Assembly: GCA_964402405.1 (NCBI GenBank)
Contig: CAYOCE010000004.1
Coordinates: 1 to 46,500, forward strand
Length of the DNA stretch: 46,500 nt
Source: an uncultured Hyphomicrobiales bacterium
GTDB lineage: Bacteria; Pseudomonadota; Alphaproteobacteria; UBA7879
Direction of reading: 5' to 3'
Part shown: positions 9,357 to 28,693 of the stretch, piece after piece
Numbering within the stretch: position 1 is the first letter of the stretch
Layout: each line of letters starts with the position of its first letter
Translations under genes and position numbers: made by a program
The notes under the pieces: model-generated
The model's database searches: none
What the model was told of the DNA's origin: nothing
Seen by the model: only the letters and a program-made list of their open reading frames with translations

Positions 9357-10322
9357 TTATTCTTTTGCTGCTAACGTCAGCTGTTTAATTTCATCCTCAG
9401 GCAGCCCTGTAATTTGAGAAATAAAGGATAAAGCAGCATTTTGATTTAACATCTTCCGAGCAATATTTCTTTTGGCCTCTAGCATGCCTTTTTCAAGTCC
9501 TAACTTCTCTCCCTCGGTCAACCCTTCAGCTTTTCCTTCAGCTTTTCCCTCAGCTTTTCCCTCAGCTAATCCTGCTGCTAACCCTTCGGCCATACCTTCT
9601 TCATAGGCCTCTTCTTTGATGGCCCTATTAGACCAGTTCTTTTTGTCCACCGAGTCATAAGCATAAATATCTGCCTCCTTCCAATCATATTTATCCAACT
9701 CGTCATACGCTCGTTCGATAATTAAATCTGATCCTGCGATTTCCTTCATATCCTGTTTACTGGTTTCGGTAGCGTTCTTTAGGAAATAACACCACTTCTG
9801 CACCATCGTTTTTAAGTGCTCTTTTTCTACATTAAACTTGGGGAGTTCAATAAAAGAAAAAGAAAAATCTTTCAGGTCTCTCTCCAACGTTTTATGATCC
9901 AAAATCACATGATGGGACAAATAATCTTTCTTTTCGGGGAACAAAACAAAATCTGTGATAGCTAGGAAAATAACTGCCTTGAGATCTTTGTATGCAACGT
10001 TTTTAGTACGCTGTTCAATGTAGGCTTTCGCCGCATAATACAGGGCACGTTTTTCGAAACCACGTTCTCTTACAACCTGCATTTCTACAATGAAGCGCTC
10101 TCCATTCTCATCCTTGCAAAGAATATCAACGCTACTCATGCGTTGACCAACGGTTTCGGGCGTTTGAAAGGTGCTTAAAAAGGTGACCTCCTGAATAGGA
10201 TTAGTGGTTCTCGCAAAAATATCGTTCAAAAAATGAATGAGGATATCTTTGTTGCGTTCTGTCCCAAAGATCTTTTTAAAAGCCAAATCATTTTTAGGGT
10301 CTAAAAATCGTGCCATTGTCAT
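9357..10322 (-). CDS. Rpn/YhgA-family recombination-promoting nuclease (PD-(D/E)XK, 'putative transposase')
   Basis: 321 aa. N-terminal FLDPKNDLAFKKIFG...VDILCKD...FIVEMQ nuclease core. An (A/T)EG(K/L) low-complexity linker is followed by a C-terminal ...ISQITGLPEDEIKQL helix region typical of the family. Paralogue of the gene at 1-727. Confidence 0.85.
   Translation of the reverse strand: MTMARFLDPKNDLAFKKIFGTERNKDILIHFLNDIFARTTNPIQEVTFLSTFQTPETVGQRMSSVDILCKDENGERFIVEMQVVRERGFEKRALYYAAKAYIEQRTKNVAYKDLKAVIFLAITDFVLFPEKKDYLSHHVILDHKTLERDLKDFSFSFIELPKFNVEKEHLKTMVQKWCYFLKNATETSKQDMKEIAGSDLIIERAYDELDKYDWKEADIYAYDSVDKKNWSNRAIKEEAYEEGMAEGLAAGLAEGKAEGKAEGKAEGLTEGEKLGLEKGMLEAKRNIARKMLNQNAALSFISQITGLPEDEIKQLTLAAKE
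9526..9567. repeat. 12-bp in-frame tandem repeat (3.5 units) inside the Rpn gene
   Basis: tcagcttttccY occurs at 9526, 9538 and 9550, with a half unit at 9562. It encodes (AEGK)n on the minus strand. Confidence 0.85.
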
Positions 10323-14844: not shown

Positions 14845-15150
14845 GAAAAAAGGGACATAAGACGCTGGAGGCAGCTCAACTTACATCCCTCTTGCTAAAA
14901 AACCCCATTAGGCGATGAACCCAAGACAAGGTACAGGATACCTTGGGTTGTTAGAAAATCCCCATTTGATTTTCCCTATGTATCGATACTATCTGGTGCA
15001 AATTCTTAAGATTTATGCCCACGATACGCATCCACCTAAAAATCCTATTGAAAATAGAGAGGTATGTCTATCGTGAAAAAAACGTAGATCTTTTCTACGT
15101 AAAAATTACCTATATTTTCTGAGAGAAAAAAATTTGTATGAGTATGATAC

Positions 15151-15221
15151 CAACTCCAGAAAATAATCATACATCTGACCTGCAGCCTTTTGGTCATTTG
15201 CACAATTATTTTCTGGAGTTG
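15151..15221. promoter_or_regulatory. perfect 17-bp inverted repeat with 37-nt spacer, 20 nt upstream of the STAND gene
   Basis: caactccagaaaataat (15151-15167) is the exact reverse complement of attattttctggagttg (15205-15221). It is either a protein-binding site pair or a 5'-UTR stem-loop. Confidence 0.5.
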
Positions 15222-15240: not shown

Positions 15241-18200
15241 TTGAGTGAAATGGAGGATATCATGGATAATAAAAAGAATGGTAACCAAGATAGAATTGAT
15301 ATAAGTCACTTAAAAATAATAAATGGCGTTAAATTTACGAACCGAGAGATAGATATCATTTCTTGTATGTTGAGAGGGCAAAGAGCAAAAGTGATTGCTT
15401 CCTGTCTTTCTATTTCTTCAAGAACAGTTGATACCCATATATGTAATATTCTTACAAAATTGAATTGCACCTCCCGAGAAGGCATTCTTGATTTTATAGA
15501 AAAATCTGGGAAATTTTCCCTATTACAAAAACATTATCATAATTTATTAATGGGGGAGTCTAACGAAACCCATGGGCTTATAAAATCAACTATTTCTGAA
15601 ATCCAAAAATCCAAAAAGTTTTTTGACTCCCTTTCTTTATTTTTTAAAAACAAAAAATCTTGGGCTGTCTTAAGTGTACCCATGGTGATTTTTTTCTTTT
15701 CCATATGGGCATTCTCATCCAAAGAACCTAATGGAAGCGAATCTATCCGATTTGATTTACGTATCCCAACAGAAGCTGTTTTCTTAAGACGTTCTAGCCT
15801 GATTAAAAATATCAACGAAAAATTAAAAGGAAAGGAAGATATTGAAACAGTTGCTCTTGTGGGCGTTGTTGGAATTGGGGGTGTTGGAAAAACAACCCTT
15901 GCTCGAGAATTTGGGCATTCCTATCGTGGACCAGTTGTTTGGGAGATTAATGCAGAAACAAAAAATTCTCTCACAACGTCATTTTTGGATCTGGCAGGTA
16001 GCCTCGCTCAAACTCCAGATAAAAAAACTGATCTAGAATTTATTAAGGCTATTCAAAACTCAGAGGAAAAAGAAAAGCAATTATTGATTTTGGTTCAACG
16101 ATGGTTGAGAGAAAAGCCAAACTGGCTTCTCATCTATGATAACGTTCCTACAGTATCGGAAATTAAAAACTATCTTGCCGATGACCCTAAAATTTGGGGA
16201 AAGGGGAAGGTAATCATTACGACGAGAGATAGCAACATTAAAAACGCAAACTGCATTAAACCAGAAAATGTCATTCAACTTGAGGAGCTGAGTGAAGAAG
16301 AAAGGCTAACTCTCTTTAGTAAAATTCTTTATAATTGTGAACCTCATAAACTTACAAAAACTCAAAAAGAAGAAGCTATTATATTTCTAAAAAATATCCC
16401 TTCATTTCCTTTGGATGTGTCTATTACGGCCTATTATATAAAAAACTCTCAGATTACGTTTGATCAGTACCTTGAGAGAATGAGATCATTTAACAAAAAC
16501 TTTGAAGAAGTACAAGAACTTTTCTTAAAAGAGATGACCGATTATACAAAAACTCGGTATGAAATTACAACTCTCTCTTTCAAGAAATTAATTGAAGTGA
16601 ATCCATATTTTAAGGAACTTCTTTTGTTTATATGTCTGTTGGATTCTCAAAATATTCCAAAAAATTTATTAGAATTCTATAAAGACAAAGAAACTGTTGA
16701 TGCTTTCCTTTATCATCTAAGGCAATACTCCTTTATTACTAAAGAATCTCCCTATTTAGAGGATTCAAAAACTCTAACAACTTTCTCCATGCATAGGAGC
16801 ACGCAGTCCATAGGATTAGCGTTTCTTATAAATTTACTAAGTAAGAAAGAAAAGGAAGAATTTCTGATAAACATTATCGATTCTCTTCAAGAGTTTCATA
16901 GTATTTACCTGAAAAAGAGTTACCCTATCAGCATTTCTCTCCTTCCTCATTTGGAATGCTATCTACAAAAAGTAGAAGACATCAAAGTGTCAAAAAAAAT
17001 AAGCTCAATATATAATGCGAAACTGCTTCTAATGTTGGGAAACACCCAATATCAATGTATAGGAAATGTTGGATCAGCAAAAAAATATTTTACTCAAATC
17101 TACGAAAATAAAAATTTTAGATCACACCTTTCTAGGTTTGACCTTGCCACATTGTCAAAAAATTTAGGAACAGTTAGTGTGGATTTGAACGCGCCAGAGG
17201 AAGCTATCGAATATTGTAAGGAAAGCCTTAAACTTTGTGATAATAAAATACCTGATTTTGAGGTTTTAAAAATAACGAATTTTATTATTCTAAGCTTTGC
17301 CTACAATACTAAGAATGATTTTAATAATTCCAAAAAATCCCTTGATGCAGCTTTAGAGTTACTTTCAAAGCTAGATCATCCCCTGAAGTTGGAACTAGAA
17401 TCAATGGTATACGGTGTTATCGCTTTTTCTCGTGCTGCAGGGTTCATGGGGAAATATAAAAAAGGGGAGGCGGAGGAATATGCAAAAAAATCTTTGAATG
17501 TGTTAAATGCTTCCCATCTTGCACTTGAAAAAACAAAAAATGTAGATTCTAAGCTCGCTTGTCAGATAATAAGGAACGCATTATGGTTTGGACGGTCTTA
17601 TAATGCAATTGGGAACTATGAGGAAGCTTTAGAGCTTGGGTTTAATGAAGCTCAGCATATTATTGATCGTCTATCAATAAATGATTGCCCTCATGAATTT
17701 TTGTTGCCGTATAATTCTTCTGTTTTAAAAGCGTATATATTGTGCGGAAAAGGAGAAGCTTTTCTACGAAAGGGTCTTTTGAAAGAAGCTGAGGACTTCC
17801 TTACACAAGCGGCGTTAATAGAGGACAAATACTTAGGAGGGACATTTAGAAATCTTGTTATCCGGCCCCTAAGAGCAGAAACCAGAATAAGGTTGAAAAA
17901 TTTTGAGGGAGCATACGAAGATTGCAATATGATGTTTAATACAAAATTAAAGGCAGGAAGCAGTTACTATAAAGCATTAAAATTAACCTCTTTCTATCAC
18001 GGCGCCATCATCAAATATAAACAAAACGATCTTAAAAAATCAGCCGAGCATTTTGCTGACTTTTTCAAACAAATGAAGGATTTCTGCAAAGGGTTTTTGG
18101 AAGAGAAAGAATATAAAGACTTAGAATCCAAAGGAGCATTTGCCTCTGTTGATCTAAGCAAAACCTCCTCTAAAAATGATATTAGGCAATACCTAAACCG

Positions 18201-18273
18201 CAGCACGCAAATTTTCTCGGCCATCTACGGACCAGACCATCCTTTTGTAAGCGATTATGTGATGAAAAACTAA
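15241..18273 (+). CDS. STAND NTPase: N-terminal LuxR/GerE HTH, predicted TM helix, NB-ARC ATPase, C-terminal TPR-like region
   Basis: HTH: TNREIDIISCMLRGQRAKVIASCLSISSRTVDTHICNILTKLNCTSREG (aa ~33-80). Hydrophobic helix: WAVLSVPMVIFFFSIWAF (nt 15661-15714). NB-ARC: P-loop GIGGVGKTTLA (nt 15871-), Walker B LLIYDNV, RNBS-B-like GKVIITTRD, GLPL-like SFPLDV. The C-terminal ~450 aa are helical-repeat or TPR-like. The start is ambiguous: TTG 15241, ATG 15250 or ATG 15262. Confidence 0.85.
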   Translation: MSEMEDIMDNKKNGNQDRIDISHLKIINGVKFTNREIDIISCMLRGQRAKVIASCLSISSRTVDTHICNILTKLNCTSREGILDFIEKSGKFSLLQKHYHNLLMGESNETHGLIKSTISEIQKSKKFFDSLSLFFKNKKSWAVLSVPMVIFFFSIWAFSSKEPNGSESIRFDLRIPTEAVFLRRSSLIKNINEKLKGKEDIETVALVGVVGIGGVGKTTLAREFGHSYRGPVVWEINAETKNSLTTSFLDLAGSLAQTPDKKTDLEFIKAIQNSEEKEKQLLILVQRWLREKPNWLLIYDNVPTVSEIKNYLADDPKIWGKGKVIITTRDSNIKNANCIKPENVIQLEELSEEERLTLFSKILYNCEPHKLTKTQKEEAIIFLKNIPSFPLDVSITAYYIKNSQITFDQYLERMRSFNKNFEEVQELFLKEMTDYTKTRYEITTLSFKKLIEVNPYFKELLLFICLLDSQNIPKNLLEFYKDKETVDAFLYHLRQYSFITKESPYLEDSKTLTTFSMHRSTQSIGLAFLINLLSKKEKEEFLINIIDSLQEFHSIYLKKSYPISISLLPHLECYLQKVEDIKVSKKISSIYNAKLLLMLGNTQYQCIGNVGSAKKYFTQIYENKNFRSHLSRFDLATLSKNLGTVSVDLNAPEEAIEYCKESLKLCDNKIPDFEVLKITNFIILSFAYNTKNDFNNSKKSLDAALELLSKLDHPLKLELESMVYGVIAFSRAAGFMGKYKKGEAEEYAKKSLNVLNASHLALEKTKNVDSKLACQIIRNALWFGRSYNAIGNYEEALELGFNEAQHIIDRLSINDCPHEFLLPYNSSVLKAYILCGKGEAFLRKGLLKEAEDFLTQAALIEDKYLGGTFRNLVIRPLRAETRIRLKNFEGAYEDCNMMFNTKLKAGSSYYKALKLTSFYHGAIIKYKQNDLKKSAEHFADFFKQMKDFCKGFLEEKEYKDLESKGAFASVDLSKTSSKNDIRQYLNRSTQIFSAIYGPDHPFVSDYVMKN

Positions 18274-18277
18274 CTAC

Positions 18278-18325
18278 CTTGAAAACCTGACATCCCTATG
18301 TCAGATTTTCAAGAACTTAATTTTT
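18278..18325 (+). terminator. putative intrinsic terminator after the STAND gene
   Basis: A 16-bp stem, cttgaaaacctgacat (18278-18293) / atgtcagattttcaag (18298-18313), with one mismatch and loop ccct. It begins 5 nt after the stop. A T-run (ttttt) follows after a 7-nt gap. Confidence 0.55.
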
Positions 18326-21471: not shown

Positions 21472-23355
21472 CTACGAAAGCAAATAGTGCACGTTGCTTA
21501 CCTTGCTTTCCTTTATATCTGGATCTTCGGGGATATAATTAGGGATATGTATAGGTAGTGTAATAGTCACAACGGTCCCCTCATGACGCTTGGAATGAAG
21601 GTGATATTTACCTTTATGCATCTCAACAACTTTTTTGATAAATCCAGAACTTAATGGGGTAACATTTAAAAATGGTAAACTTTCATTTATTCCTAGGTTA
21701 TGCTGGATGCGATGAATTTCTTCCTCATCCAAACCAAATCCATTATCTTTTATAATGATTTCTGCATACTTTGTATGCTCTTTCGTAACAACCCTAGAAG
21801 ATACCTGTATTTCGCTTAAATTAGGAAGATTATTAATAGATTCATAAATAATCCCCACGACAATTTGCTTAATTTTTAGTTTATCTGCATTTATATTAGG
21901 GATGTTTTCTTGTAAAGAGGTTGATATTTTGATCTTTTTAGAGAATGCTTCTTTTAAGTTAATTTGCACACACTGTTCCAAAAGCTCATTAATATCAAAA
22001 TCTATTAAATCAAGGGAGGTAAATGTTTTATAATTAATTTGTAAGGCAGCAGCTTTGATTTTGTTAATGCAATCAATTTCCTGATCATTGGTTAATTTCA
22101 AATGCTTCCCTTTTGACGAACTGTCTAAAAGAATATCTGTATAATTTAAGATGGTTTTTAAAGGGTGCTCAAAATCTTTGTAAAGGCTTTTAACAAATTC
22201 ATCCTTTGCATGATCAGAAGCACTAGCTATATTTTCTGCCAGCTCTAAGCGCTTTCGATACCTAGCTGTTTTTCTAAAATATCGGTTAACCAGCAATAAT
22301 CCTTTGGCTAAATTATGCATTTCTAAAGAGTTTTGCTTGGGCATTTTCATGTTGGTGTTGCTTGTAGAAATAAGAGATGCATATTTAGACAGTGCAGAAA
22401 TTGGGTTAATAATTATTTTTTTAAAGAAAAAAATGAATACAATACAGAAAACAGCAAGAGTGATAAATTGGTACAATTTTGTTAATACATTATCGTGTAG
22501 TTTTTTTATCCTGTAATCTTCATTATATCCTATAACAACTGTATATGGATAATTTTTTAACTTTTTATATTGAGAATAAGCAACATTATTAATCAGAATA
22601 GGGGTTTCCAGAGATTCTTTTGAACTATTTTCGTGGGAAAAAATAGGATCAAAAACAGACTTGTTTATATTCAAATTTGGAGGGGAAACAATAATATTTC
22701 TATCATTATCTATAATAATAAAATCTATTTTTAGTTTGTCTATTCTTTCTTCTAAGTGAGATCTAAGATTTTTTATTCTAAGCCCCACAAGTAAATATCC
22801 TAAAAATACCTTTTCTGAATTTTCTACACCCATAGCAATCGGTAAAACCACGTCCGTGGTAAATAAACTCCTGGTAAGAGCAGCTGTTTTCAAAACGCCG
22901 GGTTCTTTTTTTGCAGGCTCAAGATACTTTCGATTAGCAATACTAGGAGCATCTTTTCCTAATATTCCATGTCTTCCACTTACTACAACAGCACCAGAGG
23001 GGTCTGCCCAACTGATATAGGATGCTGCCATGGCTCGAATACCTAGCTCTCCAGGGACAGAAAGTTTTCGCGCAATTTCCTCAAGCATTTTCTTGGGTGG
23101 CCCCTTTATCTTGTCAATAGCCCCACTCACATATTTTAAAATAGTAGCGTTTTCTCTAAAAATTTCTTTAAGCTCTCCATGAATTCGAAAGGTCGCAATC
23201 TCCAATGCTGTCTTTCGCTCCATTTTGTAGTTTTCATACGCACTATGATAGTAGAACGCAGACACAGCTAAAATTGACAACAAAATAAATACAAAAAACA
23301 TATAGTAATCTGATAGGGATAAAACTCTAGATCTTAATTTTATTTTTTTCCACAT
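21472..23355 (-). CDS. membrane sensor histidine kinase (large periplasmic sensor domain)
   Basis: 627 aa with two TM helices (aa ~17-37 and ~295-315). H-box DFEHPLKTILNYTDILL, N-box region IIYESINNL, G1 KDNGFGL. The G2 box looks degenerate: PLSSGFIKKVVEMHKG where GxGLGL is expected. Confidence 0.82.
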   Translation of the reverse strand: MWKKIKLRSRVLSLSDYYMFFVFILLSILAVSAFYYHSAYENYKMERKTALEIATFRIHGELKEIFRENATILKYVSGAIDKIKGPPKKMLEEIARKLSVPGELGIRAMAASYISWADPSGAVVVSGRHGILGKDAPSIANRKYLEPAKKEPGVLKTAALTRSLFTTDVVLPIAMGVENSEKVFLGYLLVGLRIKNLRSHLEERIDKLKIDFIIIDNDRNIIVSPPNLNINKSVFDPIFSHENSSKESLETPILINNVAYSQYKKLKNYPYTVVIGYNEDYRIKKLHDNVLTKLYQFITLAVFCIVFIFFFKKIIINPISALSKYASLISTSNTNMKMPKQNSLEMHNLAKGLLLVNRYFRKTARYRKRLELAENIASASDHAKDEFVKSLYKDFEHPLKTILNYTDILLDSSSKGKHLKLTNDQEIDCINKIKAAALQINYKTFTSLDLIDFDINELLEQCVQINLKEAFSKKIKISTSLQENIPNINADKLKIKQIVVGIIYESINNLPNLSEIQVSSRVVTKEHTKYAEIIIKDNGFGLDEEEIHRIQHNLGINESLPFLNVTPLSSGFIKKVVEMHKGKYHLHSKRHEGTVVTITLPIHIPNYIPEDPDIKESKVSNVHYLLS

Positions 23356-23381
23356 TTCTTATTTTACACTCCAACAATTAC

Positions 23382-23840
23382 CTATAATTTACTCGCCAAC
23401 CATTCTGCAAAATTTTTATCAACCTCATGCTGGTTTTTACTAAGGGAATACTGGTAAACTTCTTTTATTAAGATCATAGCTTGCTCAGCAGAAAGAGAGA
23501 GGTTTTTGGTTTGTAAGGATAGAATTACTGCCGAAACAGTTTTTGAATATAAATCTGCATCCCACGGCGTTTTAGGCAGCTGGACCCCCATTTCTTTTTC
23601 CAGGGAAAAAAGAGAATCTTCTCTTTGTTTAACAGGGCTTCTATTTAGCAGATCATCAAGAGAACAGCCTAGGATATCAGCAATTGCAACCAGGGTTTCT
23701 GAGGTGGGGTTCTTAGAGCTTCCTCTTAAAATATTACCGATGACCCCTCTTTTAAGCCCCGCTTTCTTTTCCAAGGCAGCAGGAGACAGACTTTTTGATT
23801 CCATACGGGTTTTTAATTGTTGTTGAATATTAGGACTCAT
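23382..23840 (-). CDS. XRE-family helix-turn-helix transcriptional regulator with uncharacterised C-terminal domain
   Basis: 152 aa. HTH_3-like LSPAALEKKAGLKRGVIGNILRGSSKNPTSETLVAIADILGCSLDDLL. It lies 26 nt upstream of the kinase gene on the same strand, so the two are probably one operon. Confidence 0.82.
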   Translation of the reverse strand: MSPNIQQQLKTRMESKSLSPAALEKKAGLKRGVIGNILRGSSKNPTSETLVAIADILGCSLDDLLNRSPVKQREDSLFSLEKEMGVQLPKTPWDADLYSKTVSAVILSLQTKNLSLSAEQAMILIKEVYQYSLSKNQHEVDKNFAEWLASKL

Positions 23841-23939: not shown

Positions 23940-24328
23940 ACTAACCGCCCTAAATTGGTCAGATATAAGTAGAGTAACTATACGTCGATTTGGATAGTAG
24001 TTCAAGGGGCAAAGAAGAAACAGGGTTGATTTTGTAAATAATACAAGAAAAACAGATGACTTATTTAAGTGGGGCTCTTCTCAGGGGTAGAAAATATGCC
24101 TGTACCTCCCCGACAAGAGCAGTTTTATTATAAGTCCGCAATGAGACATGTCAACAACCTTTTTGTTTGACACCCCTCTTCAAAACACATGCACCGCCTC
24201 ATCTATGCATAAAACCCCACGATTTTAAGAAGAAAATTTAATAAACTTCAGTCCTTACAATTTTTTTGAAATAAAAAATAATTTATGGTAATATAATTAT
24301 AATAATCAAAATATTGGGGGCAAAAAAA

Positions 24329-26080
24329 ATGAAAAAACTTTTCAAGTTATCATTAATAACGTTAGCAAGTTGTATATACTTCTCTAATGCACTATCTATA
24401 CCTAATATCCCCCATCCACAACTAACATCCGAGCGAACAATAGATCAACCAGTAGCTGACCCAGTGGATGATATAGAAGAAAAATTAGCAGAAAATGCAT
24501 TAATAACTTCTACTCTTCAAACAGAAATCAAACCATCTAAGGATCAAACACTCATCGATGGCCAGATAAATAGTCTATTAAGAGCAGTACATCAACCAAC
24601 GGATAATATAAGCCGAATCGTGGCCCTTGTTCTAATTAGGATGCTCCCACATGATTTTGAAACCCAAAAACGACTATATCCTGAAGTTCGGGCACGTTTA
24701 GAAGGCCGTGAAAAAGATATTAATAAACAGAATCTTAGGCATGAACTATATCTAATACAACGTCTTGTCAACATTATGCTCACACTTCCTCCTGAAAAAT
24801 TAAAGCAAATTATTGAAACAACTCAAAATAAGGTGGATAGACTTGTTAGGGATCCCTTCGGTCCTGAGGTTTTGCCATTAATGATCGCTGCCCTTCATAT
24901 TGAAAGCAGAGGTGAGGATTTAGCTAATCAGTGGGTTAGCTCAATTCCTTTACAAACCAGCTCAGATGAAACATATAATTTGTTCGCTAAAGATATTCTA
25001 CTAAGCATGCCTGACCAAGAATTTACGACCTTTGTAAAAAGGTGGCGAGAACTGGGACTAGGGGAGATGCATTGCTCCATTGATGATTTGAAAGAAATTA
25101 TTGATGTAATTAGGAAAGTATCCCACGATCAATGGAAATTGGCTTGTGATCGATTTAAAGACTTGCATATAGAAGGAATAGGAGATAGAGGACGGGTGCG
25201 TATTGCAGAGGCAATATCAAAACTTTCTAAATCTGATTGGGTTCTTTTGTCAACAAAATTGAATGCGTCAAATCATCCTATAACTGGTCAATCCGATGAT
25301 TTTATTAATAGCATTCCTAGGATACTACGCTCACCTCCTAAACATCCAGTAGTTGATATAAGGAATAAATCTGCTACCAGCACGTCATTTGAAGGTGTTA
25401 CTACTAATGGTCCGTCTAGCCCTGTTATGGCAGCAGCAAGTTCACCCCAGCCCTTGATCCAACTACCACAAGCCACAATCTCAATGCCCAAATTTAAAGC
25501 ATTTGATATAAGAGGCAGGAAATTTGGGAGCGCTACATCACCTAAGGAAACGACTGTTATTGAGAGTGACGAAATGAAGATCCTTAAAACACTTATAGCT
25601 ATGCCCAACACACCAGGTAGAGCGACTCCGAGCTTAAAAAAGAATAACCATACTTATTATCTATCAAATTTTAAATGCCCTGATAGCCTCTCTTTGCAGG
25701 GGATGCTTATTTCTATGGATCAATTAAAACACAGAGGATACCCTATGCAAATTATGGGATACAATCCTTGCGAGGGAAATGGGGAAAGTAGCCAAGAAAC
25801 TTGTGTTGTTTGGTCTCCTGATCCTACATTTAATAAAGTAGAGACCATTGTAAATCTTATAGAAGATATGGTAGGAGATCTTGTAAGTGTTTCTGTTCCT
25901 CCTCTGCCTGGAAATGCAACACTTGCATGCACTTATAGCAGAATGGATCATACACCATCAAATGGGATTCCCCCAACATTATCTGTATTACTCAAGACAC
26001 CTAAAAAACCCTGTGAATTTACGAAATCAAATGGCACGCTCTCTTGTTTGAGTTCTATTAAAGATCTGCCATCTGCTTAA
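24329..26080 (+). CDS. hypothetical secreted protein (orphan)
   Basis: The track ORF starts at TTG 24314. The ATG at 24329 gives MKKLFKLSLITLASCIYFSNALS, which looks like a signal peptide. There is a Ser/Pro-rich linker (PSSPVMAAASSPQPL) and a Cys-containing C-terminal domain. No family recognised. Confidence 0.65.
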   Translation: MKKLFKLSLITLASCIYFSNALSIPNIPHPQLTSERTIDQPVADPVDDIEEKLAENALITSTLQTEIKPSKDQTLIDGQINSLLRAVHQPTDNISRIVALVLIRMLPHDFETQKRLYPEVRARLEGREKDINKQNLRHELYLIQRLVNIMLTLPPEKLKQIIETTQNKVDRLVRDPFGPEVLPLMIAALHIESRGEDLANQWVSSIPLQTSSDETYNLFAKDILLSMPDQEFTTFVKRWRELGLGEMHCSIDDLKEIIDVIRKVSHDQWKLACDRFKDLHIEGIGDRGRVRIAEAISKLSKSDWVLLSTKLNASNHPITGQSDDFINSIPRILRSPPKHPVVDIRNKSATSTSFEGVTTNGPSSPVMAAASSPQPLIQLPQATISMPKFKAFDIRGRKFGSATSPKETTVIESDEMKILKTLIAMPNTPGRATPSLKKNNHTYYLSNFKCPDSLSLQGMLISMDQLKHRGYPMQIMGYNPCEGNGESSQETCVVWSPDPTFNKVETIVNLIEDMVGDLVSVSVPPLPGNATLACTYSRMDHTPSNGIPPTLSVLLKTPKKPCEFTKSNGTLSCLSSIKDLPSA

Positions 26081-27502: not shown

Positions 27503-28693
27503 TTAAGAAAGGTTGGAGATTACCTCTAAGAAGTCCGTAATGCCGATCGCTTGGGTATCATGGGACAAGGGAAATTGTTCTTGTCCGCCATAAACCACAA
27601 ACTTTTTGGTTGCTCCAATATCTTCGGCTGCTTTGTGAAAGCCTGCTGAAACTTTCGGCGCAACGGATCGTTTGATTTCCACAGCCCATGTTTCCTGGCG
27701 AGGCCCTTCTAGAACAAGATCTATTTCTGTCTGAGAAGCTGTACGATAATAACTGTATCGCCATTTATCAGAAAGGGAATTGATAATGTTCTCAATCAAA
27801 AAACCTTCCCAACTAGCCCCACAGTGAGGATGACCCAAAAGATCATCAAAAGAAGATAAGTTAAGCAATCTATGAAGGAGCCCTGTATCTCGTAAATATA
27901 TTTTAGGAGATTTTACCAACCGTTTTTTTGTATTGCCGGACCAGGGTTGAATTTGGCGTACCATATAGAAATCAGTGAGTATATCCAGATAGTTTCTAAT
28001 GGTTGTATGGTTGGATTCTAAGCTTTTTCCAATTCCCGATAGATTAATTTGTTGGCCATGGTAATGGGCCAGCATTTGCCAAAATCGCTTTATCTGAGAT
28101 GCAGCAACCTTGGGCCCCATCAAAGGAATATCCCTTTCTACATAAGTTGCGATAAAATCCCCTCGCCAAAGCCAGCTTTCTTCATCATTTGGGGCTAAAT
28201 AACTATTGGGAAATCCCCCTCGAAACCAAAGCTTATCAGGATTAAACCCCAATCCCTCTGTATGGCGGATTTCTTTGATCAAAAAAGAAGTTAGTTCAAG
28301 ATATCTGATGCGCCCTGCAAGTGTTTCGGAAGAATGTTGGAGCAAATCACGAGAAGCAGATCCAAGCAACAAAAACTGTCCGGATGTCTCTCCTTGCCTT
28401 TTGCGATAATCAACTAATCCTCGGAGCACCCGAAATAGATCGGGTTTGCGTTGAACTTCATCAATAATTAATAGGGTATCGGAAAATTGCCTTAAATATG
28501 TTTCTGGGTCCTCTAATCGCGCAAGATCTGAATCAAGCTCCAAATCCATGTAATGAATTTTTTTTCCAATTTTTTTATGTACCAAGTCAAGAGCAAGAGT
28601 AGTCTTTCCCACTTGTCTTGGCCCTAAAAGAGCAACAACTGGCACCGCATTAATGGCCCCTATTAAATTTTTTTCAAGAGTTCGTATAATCAT
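27503..28693 (-). CDS. AAA-family ATPase fused to a C-terminal PD-(D/E)XK-like domain (AAA_14/DUF4143-type architecture)
   Basis: Walker A GPRQVGKTT and Walker B LLIIDEVQ. The C-terminal motif TEIDLVLEG...WAVEIKRS (nt 27669-27730) fits D-x(n)-E-x-K. Confidence 0.82.
   Translation of the reverse strand: MIIRTLEKNLIGAINAVPVVALLGPRQVGKTTLALDLVHKKIGKKIHYMDLELDSDLARLEDPETYLRQFSDTLLIIDEVQRKPDLFRVLRGLVDYRKRQGETSGQFLLLGSASRDLLQHSSETLAGRIRYLELTSFLIKEIRHTEGLGFNPDKLWFRGGFPNSYLAPNDEESWLWRGDFIATYVERDIPLMGPKVAASQIKRFWQMLAHYHGQQINLSGIGKSLESNHTTIRNYLDILTDFYMVRQIQPWSGNTKKRLVKSPKIYLRDTGLLHRLLNLSSFDDLLGHPHCGASWEGFLIENIINSLSDKWRYSYYRTASQTEIDLVLEGPRQETWAVEIKRSVAPKVSAGFHKAAEDIGATKKFVVYGGQEQFPLSHDTQAIGITDFLEVISNLS

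Follow-up and report, generated by a model that had tools for sequence, protein, structure and literature searches.

Positions 15262-18273 (forward strand) of contig CAYOCE010000004.1, from an uncultured Hyphomicrobiales bacterium (assembly GCA_964402405.1), encode a protein in which a LuxR/GerE-type helix-turn-helix (HTH) domain, a single hydrophobic helix, an NB-ARC nucleotide switch and a tetratricopeptide repeat (TPR) domain follow one another. The window referred to below is the whole stretch analyzed, the first 46.5 kb of this contig. We read the protein as a bitopic, membrane-anchored one-component transcription regulator with its HTH inside the cell and its NB-ARC-TPR module in the periplasm, where host ATP could reach the sensor, and judge the chances for and against this reading to be about equal. 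It is suggested by the conservation of the switch motifs and of the helix, by the charge distribution around the helix and by an operator-like palindrome that covaries with the recognition helix of the HTH.

Domain organization and predicted structure

A preliminary description of this locus, made from the sequence alone, had proposed an N-terminal HTH, a short hydrophobic segment, an NB-ARC module and TPR-like repeats in this unusual order. Pfam searches and an AlphaFold2 (AF2) model agree with that order and recover each element. The model was built on 75 homologues and has a mean predicted local distance difference test (pLDDT) score of 87.3 and a predicted template-modeling score (pTM) of 0.75. 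Hydrophobicity was calculated on the Kyte-Doolittle (KD) scale over 19-residue windows, with a threshold of 1.6. The features of the coding sequence are as follows.

15262..18273, forward strand: coding sequence of the LuxR-HTH / transmembrane / NB-ARC / TPR protein, 1003 residues, stop codon included (list of open reading frames and database gene call P0001)
15334..15486, forward strand: GerE/LuxR-type HTH with recognition helix SRTVDTHICN (PF00196, residues 32-82, E 7.5e-13, 48.3 bits, cut-off 23.5)
15556..15660, forward strand: flexible linker from HTH to helix, ending in the basic cluster KNKK (AF2 pLDDT below 50 at residues 99-134)
15661..15714, forward strand: hydrophobic helix WAVLSVPMVIFFFSIWAF, predicted single transmembrane anchor (KD 1.92; isolated AF2 helix at residues 135-152)
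15739..16836, forward strand: NB-ARC nucleotide switch, with nucleotide-binding domain, helical domain and winged helix (PF00931, residues 187-402, E 2e-12, 47.4 bits, cut-off 23.5)
15871-15894, forward strand: Walker A, GIGGVGKT, within the NB-ARC
16126-16143, forward strand: Walker B, LLIYDN, within the NB-ARC
16792-16797, forward strand: MHD-like H511-R512, within the NB-ARC
16843..18261, forward strand: TPR-like helical repeat sensor domain of about 470 residues (TPR_12, E 2e-9, 37.9 bits, cut-off 30.1, and other TPR models)

The GerE, NB-ARC and TPR_12 matches each lie above the Pfam gathering cut-off. The hydrophobic segment falls on exactly the 54 nucleotides singled out earlier and is the only 19-residue window of the protein above the threshold, and the four motifs quoted for the NB-ARC (GIGGVGKTTLA, LLIYDNV, GKVIITTRD and SFPLDV) are all present in a domain whose profile match is significant. 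In the AF2 model, a four-helix HTH (helices at residues 27-100, pLDDT about 90) is followed by the disordered linker, the isolated helix, a short loop, a compact NB-ARC and helical repeats that extend over residues 528-1000. The NB-ARC region, modeled with pLDDT above 90, is a unit of α/β, helical and winged-helix parts. A Foldseek search of the PDB places NB-ARC modules of plant nucleotide-binding leucine-rich repeat (NLR) proteins at the top (ZAR1, 6j6i, E 2e-8; also Sr35 and NRC, about 1e-8); CED-4, AVAST5 and SAMD9 are among the further fold matches. The family profile matches LuxR-type HTH structures in the PDB, including GerE, NarL and VraR, and the TPR region matches kinesin light chain, the TPR superhelices of LGN/Pins and consensus TPR proteins in both profile and Foldseek searches. 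As judged from its sequence, the window protein is a bona fide STAND NTPase of the NB-ARC clade and, equally, a bona fide GerE-family HTH protein.

In family alignments the Walker A and Walker B motifs are invariant, and little or no variation is seen in the TT of TTR and in the PL-D of SFPLDV; Gly204, Gly207, Gly209, Lys210, Asp293, Asn294 and His511 do not vary among the 75 aligned sequences. Counted over the 120 closest homologues, Walker A is present in all 120, hhhhD[ND] in 117, TT[RK] in 104, a GLPL-like motif in 114 and the MHD-like hHR[SE] in 105. Because the nucleotide-switch motifs are fully conserved, the NB-ARC is, by this measure, under selection to bind nucleotide, wherever it is located.

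Predicted membrane topology

Exactly one strongly hydrophobic 19-mer is found in 117 of the 120 closest homologues, 39-82 residues (median 55) before Walker A; two of the remaining three fall just below the KD threshold and the third is truncated at its N-terminus. Among the 150 best representatives at 50% identity, the segment is kept in 145 of the 146 assessable proteins, with a median KD of 2.37 and a hydrophobic core of 19-23 residues (median uncharged core 20), and no second hydrophobic segment was found in the family proteins. The segment has no amphipathic character. Its sequence drifts while its position and hydrophobicity are kept and flanking motifs are conserved, such as the IRSDLxIP that follows directly, which argues for a lipid-exposed span rather than a packed helix. 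It is modeled as an isolated helix between low-confidence linkers in both AF2 models, that of the window protein and that of a long form described below.

Lys and Arg make up 25.5% of the 15 residues N-terminal to the helix (3.8-3.9 residues, net charge about +3), against 13% over the whole protein, and 15% of the 15 residues C-terminal to it (2.3 residues, net about +0.5). The N-terminal flank is the richer in 107 proteins and the poorer in 15 (Wilcoxon 4e-17). Export of a folded N-terminal domain of 130-300 residues that lacks a signal peptide is implausible. Since the bias lies on the HTH side, and since the folded N-terminal domain lacks a signal peptide and must reach DNA, an N-in/C-out orientation is predicted, in which, as in ToxR, the HTH would be inside and the NB-ARC-TPR module outside the inner membrane.

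The preliminary description had considered a true span implausible for an ATP-driven switch and had proposed a re-entrant or peripheral helix as one of its alternatives. The near-complete retention of the segment, the length of its core, its median hydrophobicity and the charge bias of its N-flank all point the other way. A re-entrant hairpin is unlikely because a core of this length is too short for one and a second segment is missing. The corresponding model of a cytoplasmic STAND regulator resembling AfsR or MalT, with HTH, NB-ARC and TPR all inside and the helix acting as a tether at the inner face or in self-association, strikes us as possible but rather doubtful. The nonamphipathic helix has too high a hydrophobicity for a position on the membrane surface, and its length would not allow it to enter the membrane and turn back; free drift of sequence with hydrophobicity kept is typical of lipid-exposed spans, and the charge asymmetry matches a spanning helix with its N-terminus inside.

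A cytoplasmic location nevertheless draws on observations that weigh against a periplasmic sensor. The motifs of an ATP-dependent switch are intact, the known STAND ATPases are all cytoplasmic, and we know of no NB-ARC or other STAND ATPase that works outside the cytoplasm. The C-terminal part of the family proteins is cysteine-rich (2-18 cysteines) and shows no bias toward an even count (47 even and 65 odd, n = 112), which would be unusual, although this is a weak argument, for proteins of an oxidizing periplasm. The helix of the window protein is the weakest in the family and contains Pro and Ser. A paralogue in a tandem array (L027 172-3357, 1061 residues) has the HTH, an insert and the NB-ARC, but no hydrophobic segment (maximum KD 0.7), so that the module can apparently exist in the cytoplasm. 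Furthermore, Lys and Arg in the C-flank are not depleted below the background, the statistic for the covariation described below does not allow for phylogeny, and an intracellular lifestyle of the window organism is something we infer only from the distribution of the family.

The same topology, and the evidence for it, would serve a regulator in which activation of the outer NB-ARC-TPR module leads to site-1/site-2 cleavage and frees the HTH for distant promoters. Bitopic regulators such as RseA and TcpP are known to undergo regulated intramembrane proteolysis, and in the models long disordered linkers appear to flank the helix on both sides. We regard such a release as improbable: a LuxR-type HTH needs dimerization, which a freed monomeric fragment of 100 residues would not supply, ToxR-type regulators act while membrane-bound, and no protease gene is among the conserved neighbors in 77 related loci.

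The upstream palindrome and putative DNA recognition

One element of the 417-nt gap upstream of the gene bears on the function of the HTH.

15096..15112, forward strand: operator-like 6-5-6 element TACGTA-aaaat-TACCTA (TACGTAaaaatTACCTA; also TCTACGTAAAAATTACCTA), overlapping a hairpin at 15082-15100

It is the only match with at most two mismatches in the window. In 1.04 Mb of related loci, the 8-mer TACGTAGA/TCTACGTA shows no overall enrichment (25 found against about 41 expected), and about 15 of these 25 sites are located some 100-120 nt upstream of a family gene, with at least seven genomes represented. When distances are measured from a conserved HTH codon, 18 of 25 upstream TACGTA cores group within a single 50-nt bin. 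Of the paired form TACGTA-N5-YACGKA there are only seven copies in the 1.04 Mb, each upstream of a family gene, and the element (at most two mismatches) is found at the fixed upstream position in 11 of 61 family genes, compared with 10 among 3000 random windows. In other paralogues this position is taken by perfect palindromes of 6-5-6 geometry but another sequence, for example TACGGG-aaaat-CCCGTA and TAGGCA-atttt-TGCCTA. The recognition-helix signature RT..TH[IV] is present in all 11 genes with a TACGTA-type site and in 6 of the 50 without (Fisher 3e-8, a value that ignores shared ancestry).

These patterns make the element at 15096-15112 a probable binding site of the protein's own HTH. The recurrence of the palindrome upstream of family genes, and its covariation with the recognition helix, suggest autoregulation by a LuxR-type dimer, and together they argue that the HTH is a working cytoplasmic DNA-binding domain.

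A regulatory function of this kind speaks against two further readings, both of which we consider unlikely. In the first, the protein would be an anti-phage or conflict STAND of the Avs/bNACHT type, its TPR domain sensing an invader and its helix disrupting membranes on oligomerization. STAND-TPR proteins are common defense sensors, AVAST5 and SAMD9 are among the fold matches, tandem arrays and plasmid carriage occur in the family, and the gene is low in GC and lies at a synteny breakpoint where a relative with 90% identical BipA has phage/GTA-like (gene transfer agent-like) genes instead. Against this, the conserved DNA-binding domain with its cognate operator-like site points to gene regulation, and the hydrophobicity of the helix is constitutive, unlike that of a concealed amphipathic effector. 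PADLOC defense models gave the window protein nothing beyond two weak HTH matches (E 9e-4 and 6e-3), which are spurious, the phage records searched contain no relative, and its neighbors are housekeeping genes. Obligate intracellular symbionts, moreover, probably meet few phages. We thus hold a defense function to be quite improbable. Among the candidate roles suggested in the preliminary description, a host-signal sensor and a membrane-tethered transcription factor fit these observations, whereas the PADLOC result, the phage records and the gene neighborhood leave that of a phage sensor without support.

In the second reading, the protein would be a secreted effector delivered to the protist, where its helix would enter a host membrane and its NB-ARC-TPR part would mimic eukaryotic NLR/Apaf-like proteins. 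In its favor, NB-ARC and TPR are eukaryote-like domains and the family does not extend beyond protist endosymbionts. Against it, there would be no use inside a host for a bacterial LuxR HTH whose operator lies upstream of the bacterial gene that encodes it. Hydrophobic helices of this kind are expected to be taken by the bacterial signal recognition particle and the Sec machinery, translocated effectors tending to have weaker transmembrane segments, and no secretion-system gene is linked to the family in the 77 loci. This reading is scarcely credible.

Distribution and variants of the family

At least 704 relatives were retrieved by a word-indexed search, nearly all annotated as GerE + NB-ARC + TPR. 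An exhaustive HMMER search of 1.84 billion cluster representatives returned 975 clusters at 50% identity with E ≤ 1e-30, and the 150th match still has E 1e-113. Occurrence was surveyed in one-genome-per-species references and in annotated plasmids. Candidatus Paracaedibacter symbiosus and Candidatus Odyssella thessalonicensis have three loci each, and further members are present in Caedibacter/Paracaedimonas, in many metagenome-assembled genomes (MAGs) of Paracaedibacteraceae, Holosporales and 'Alphaproteobacteria', one of which has at least nine loci, and in MAGs labeled Rickettsiaceae. Plasmid copies are carried by three plasmids of Candidatus Paracaedimonas acanthamoebae and three of Candidatus Megaera polyxenophila, a true member of the Rickettsiaceae and a symbiont of the ciliate Euplotes, which comes from a Euplotes woodruffi culture. 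In the intact copy from Megaera the architecture is the same, hydrophobic helix included. P. symbiosus, O. thessalonicensis and P. acanthamoebae are listed as dwellers of the host cytoplasm (PMC11909080). The family thus tracks a lifestyle, cytoplasmic symbiosis with protists, across two alphaproteobacterial orders, and is plasmid-borne. Because these named organisms live in the cytoplasm of their hosts, the objection that the periplasm is free of ATP may fail for this family.

On Megaera plasmid CP113872 (L079), the family copy stands among genes annotated as envelope proteins (Pal lipoprotein, porin family and BON domain), and close to them are a DUF883 protein gene and the gene of a VapC toxin, next to which lies a CopG-family regulator. 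Another plasmid-borne copy from Megaera (L080) is split over several open reading frames (ORFs). Short contigs that were binned into MAGs of Gammaproteobacteria, Flavobacteriales or Bacteriovoracaceae carry a few family members (L017, L048, L059 and L060); these contigs are probably mis-binned endosymbiont DNA. The related loci also contain six multi-transmembrane ORFs of a length that would suit an ATP/ADP translocase. A characterized nucleotide transporter of Caedibacter caryophilus is cited in a review of the Holosporales (PMC11909080).

Paralogues are arranged in tandem, with three copies each in L027 (172-3357, 3375-6980 and 7008-10334), L034 and L047 and two each in L040 and L073. No partner gene is conserved across the 77 related loci, in keeping with the earlier view of a stand-alone gene; the commonest nonfamily neighbor clusters occur in 9 of the 77, one being an ABC-F-type ATPase by its motifs and one a 1070-residue P-loop protein. 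Other architectures in which an HTH is joined through a transmembrane helix to a further domain were not found in the same genomes, where only small soluble LuxR solos and frameshifted family members were seen.

Whereas the window protein is a short form, an additional α/β domain of about 155-180 residues lies between the HTH and the helix in most relatives; in one long form (P0004, residues 118-272) it is confidently modeled as five-stranded (pLDDT 70-93). Pfam gives only sub-threshold hints for this insert (TIR_2, E 0.13; SEFIR, E 0.13; HetE-N, E 0.0017), a profile search of the PDB gave nothing significant, and with the whole long-form model STAND and TPR matches dominate the Foldseek result and mask any match of the insert. 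HTH-less variants, with a short basic N-terminal tail, a transmembrane helix and NB-ARC-TPR, were also observed (L022 4365-7307, reverse strand; L032 651-3305; P0030, P0047 and P0020), some of which may be gene-call artifacts. P0020 begins with MRIITLLCLASIPLLAQG, resembling a cleavable signal peptide ahead of the NB-ARC.

The annotations given to the family are 'hypothetical', 'tetratricopeptide repeat protein' and 'LuxR C-terminal-related transcriptional regulator'. In the accessible literature we found no paper that joins Holosporales with NB-ARC or Paracaedibacter with LuxR, and the papers retrieved on NB-ARC with LuxR concern soluble actinobacterial regulators. The 2025 Holosporales review makes no mention of LuxR or TPR proteins (PMC11909080). 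This HTH-transmembrane-NB-ARC-TPR family is therefore undescribed in the accessible literature, no published description of it having been found.

Relationship to known systems

By analogy, the window protein appears to work most like an AfsR crossed with the bitopic topology of ToxR. With AfsR and related SARP-NB-ARC-TPR proteins of Actinomycetes it shares the order of DNA-binding domain, NB-ARC and TPR, the MHD-type histidine of the winged-helix domain and an NB-ARC of the same bacterial TPR-linked type, with a Walker B that ends in DN. In AfsR, the NB-ARC-TPR part drives the DNA-binding domain through an MHD-type switch, for which a His-Asp activation switch has been reported (bioRxiv 10.64898/2026.09.02.748808). 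AfsR has an OmpR-type SARP domain and a BTAD, whereas the window protein has a LuxR/GerE domain and a transmembrane helix before the NB-ARC, and its family belongs to protist endosymbionts, not Actinomycetes. Pfam finds neither Trans_reg_C nor BTAD in it, and it reaches 22.3 bits with the NCBIfam AfsR model, whose cut-off is 1430.

MalT and other LAL regulators, and the mycobacterial cyclase-ATPase-TPR-LuxR proteins, likewise unite a STAND ATPase, helical repeats and a LuxR HTH in one polypeptide, and in them ligand- and ATP-driven oligomerization activates transcription. The proteins of these families are soluble and have their HTH at the C-terminus and an ATPase of the MalT/AAA_16 type, while the window protein has the reverse order, an NB-ARC and a transmembrane helix; the MalT model PRK04841 reaches 18.5 bits (cut-off 537), on the HTH only. 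The earlier account had allowed that the homologues might turn out to be ordinary MalT/AfsR-like regulators. The scores of both models, far under their cut-offs, and the conservation of the transmembrane helix speak otherwise.

ToxR, CadC and TcpP share the predicted topology, with a cytoplasmic N-terminal DNA-binding domain, one transmembrane helix and an external self-associating sensor. Their DNA-binding domain is an OmpR-type winged helix and their periplasmic sensors are small and do not bind nucleotide, in contrast to the GerE-type HTH and 850-residue NTPase-repeat part of the window protein. Avs/AVAST, bNACHT and plant CC-NLRs such as ZAR1 have the NB-ARC/STAND core and a C-terminal repeat sensor in common with it, plant NLRs being the best structural matches. 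Some defense STANDs have N-terminal membrane-active effectors, whereas the helix of the window protein lies between two domains and its N-terminal module is a transcription-factor domain with a cognate operator-like site. The best NCBIfam match over the NB-ARC is the TPR protein of the FxSxx-COOH system (NF040586), a model that also appears for plasmid match H7; its 97.3 bits lie far under the cut-off of 300, that family has neither HTH nor transmembrane helix, and FxSxx system genes were not found near the window gene. Membership in the MalT/LAL, AfsR/SARP, ToxR/CadC, Avs and FxSxx families was rejected, as in each case at least one defining feature tested is lacking.

Gene boundaries and genomic context

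The ORF at 15241-18273 (forward strand) would encode 1010 residues if it began at the alternative upstream start TTG 15241. ATG 15262 is the first in-frame start with a ribosome-binding site (GGAGGA at 15252-15257, 5 nt upstream), and the protein that it begins equals database gene call P0001 in length (1003 residues). The sequence thus favors ATG 15262 as the likelier true start, so that the ORF and stop codon of the preliminary description stand while its start probably lies 21 nt further downstream. The gene is separated by the 417-nt gap from an upstream MFS gene and by 98 nt from a downstream HIT gene. Its GC content of 0.339 (0.30 at third codon positions) compares with 0.40-0.48 for the neighboring genes, which accords with its earlier characterization as AT-rich. 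A flanking inverted repeat and a terminator had also been noted, and both are recovered among the following features.

15082-15100: small 7-bp hairpin, ACGTAGA (15082-15088) / TCTACGT (15094-15100), in the 417-nt upstream gap
15119..15148, forward strand: σ70-like promoter candidate CTGAGA-18-TATGAT, directly downstream of the operator-like element (consensus scan, 9/12 matches)
15135..15173, forward strand: second inverted repeat, TGTATGAGTAT-N17-ATAATCATACA, overlapping the promoter candidate (repeat finder, 10/11 positions complementary)
18278..18313, no strand assigned: terminator-like hairpin (arms 16 nt, loop 4 nt) that follows the stop codon directly

The promoter-candidate region as a whole shows no enrichment over shuffled sequences, which makes it weak evidence for a promoter. 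The inverted repeat at 15135-15173 was ruled out as a conserved operator, as it does not recur in other loci.

A close relative (L078, a contig of JGI 3300000156), whose BipA is 90% identical to that of the window, keeps the PfkB-BipA-MFS synteny and lacks the STAND gene, having phage/GTA-like capsid and connector genes directly downstream in its place. The window gene therefore lies at a synteny breakpoint and, from its composition and context, is probably a recently acquired accessory element amid housekeeping genes; no paralogue of it is present in the window. By BipA the window organism is an alphaproteobacterium. Its BipA is 68-70% identical to those of Holosporales MAGs and Paracaedibacter, and equally to those of some free-living Rhodospirillales, so that this protein does not decide on a placement in the Holosporales.

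A second low-GC patch (GC 0.31) lies at 22-23 kb. At 21472-23840 (reverse strand) the window encodes a 627-residue protein with sub-threshold matches to dCache_1 (29.4 bits, cut-off 45) and HATPase_c and no match to HisKA, adjoined by a 152-residue Cro/C1-type HTH protein, and at 24314-26080 (forward strand) there is a 588-residue ORF without any Pfam match. Genes for a transposase of the PD-(D/E)XK family and for an AAA_14/DUF4143 ATPase (9357-10322 and 27503-28693, both reverse strand) stand amid housekeeping genes and are signs of mobile or selfish elements in the genome.

Proposed mechanism and implications

In the membrane-anchored regulator that we propose, the cytoplasmic LuxR/GerE HTH would bind the 6-5-6 palindrome upstream of its own gene and probably other targets, and the single transmembrane helix after it would hold the NB-ARC-TPR module beyond the inner membrane, in the periplasm. 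Capture of a ligand by the TPR domain, with nucleotide exchange on the NB-ARC, would cause the outer modules to oligomerize; the HTH domains would then cluster at the inner face and DNA binding would be switched. This logic would combine that of MalT and AfsR with that of ToxR and CadC. Signaling by ligand- and nucleotide-dependent oligomerization is established for the STAND proteins MalT, Apaf-1 and plant NLRs, and ToxR-type regulators can have their DNA binding controlled at the membrane through the joining of their external domains. Host ATP and ADP, with reducing thiols, would enter the periplasm via porins, and a nucleotide switch located there would report the state of the host. That host ATP reaches the periplasm is suggested by relatives in the Rickettsiales and Holosporales, which import host nucleotides across the inner membrane. 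What we infer in this scheme is that the helix inserts into the membrane and in which orientation, that the HTH binds the element, what kind of ligand is captured and that ATP is available in the periplasm.

A wider proposal, which we put forward tentatively and with the chances somewhat against it, is that this is the first NLR/STAND-type nucleotide switch outside the cytoplasm: an exported NB-ARC-TPR module supplied with host ATP through porins and signaling across the membrane to a LuxR HTH, in a host-state sensing system that plasmids have spread between Holosporales and Rickettsiales sharing protist hosts. In the long forms the signal would also reach the extra α/β domain, which is possibly TIR-like. 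Such a receptor would resemble a Toll-like receptor in build, wired directly to DNA.

[quoted passage not shown] Either ATP-driven switches can work outside the cytoplasm thanks to life inside another cell, or the helix is a type of anchor beyond current topology rules; an external NB-ARC, if verified, would set a new category among NLR-type switches. Experiments can start from the predicted operator TACGTA-N5-TACGTA and from the MHD-type histidine, AfsR mutated in the equivalent His-Asp motif being constitutively active. The family has at least nine loci in one MAG, tandem triplets and copies on plasmids, which places it with the most expanded regulator families of these reduced genomes, and it offers a testable entry to host sensing by obligate protist endosymbionts, about which very little is known.

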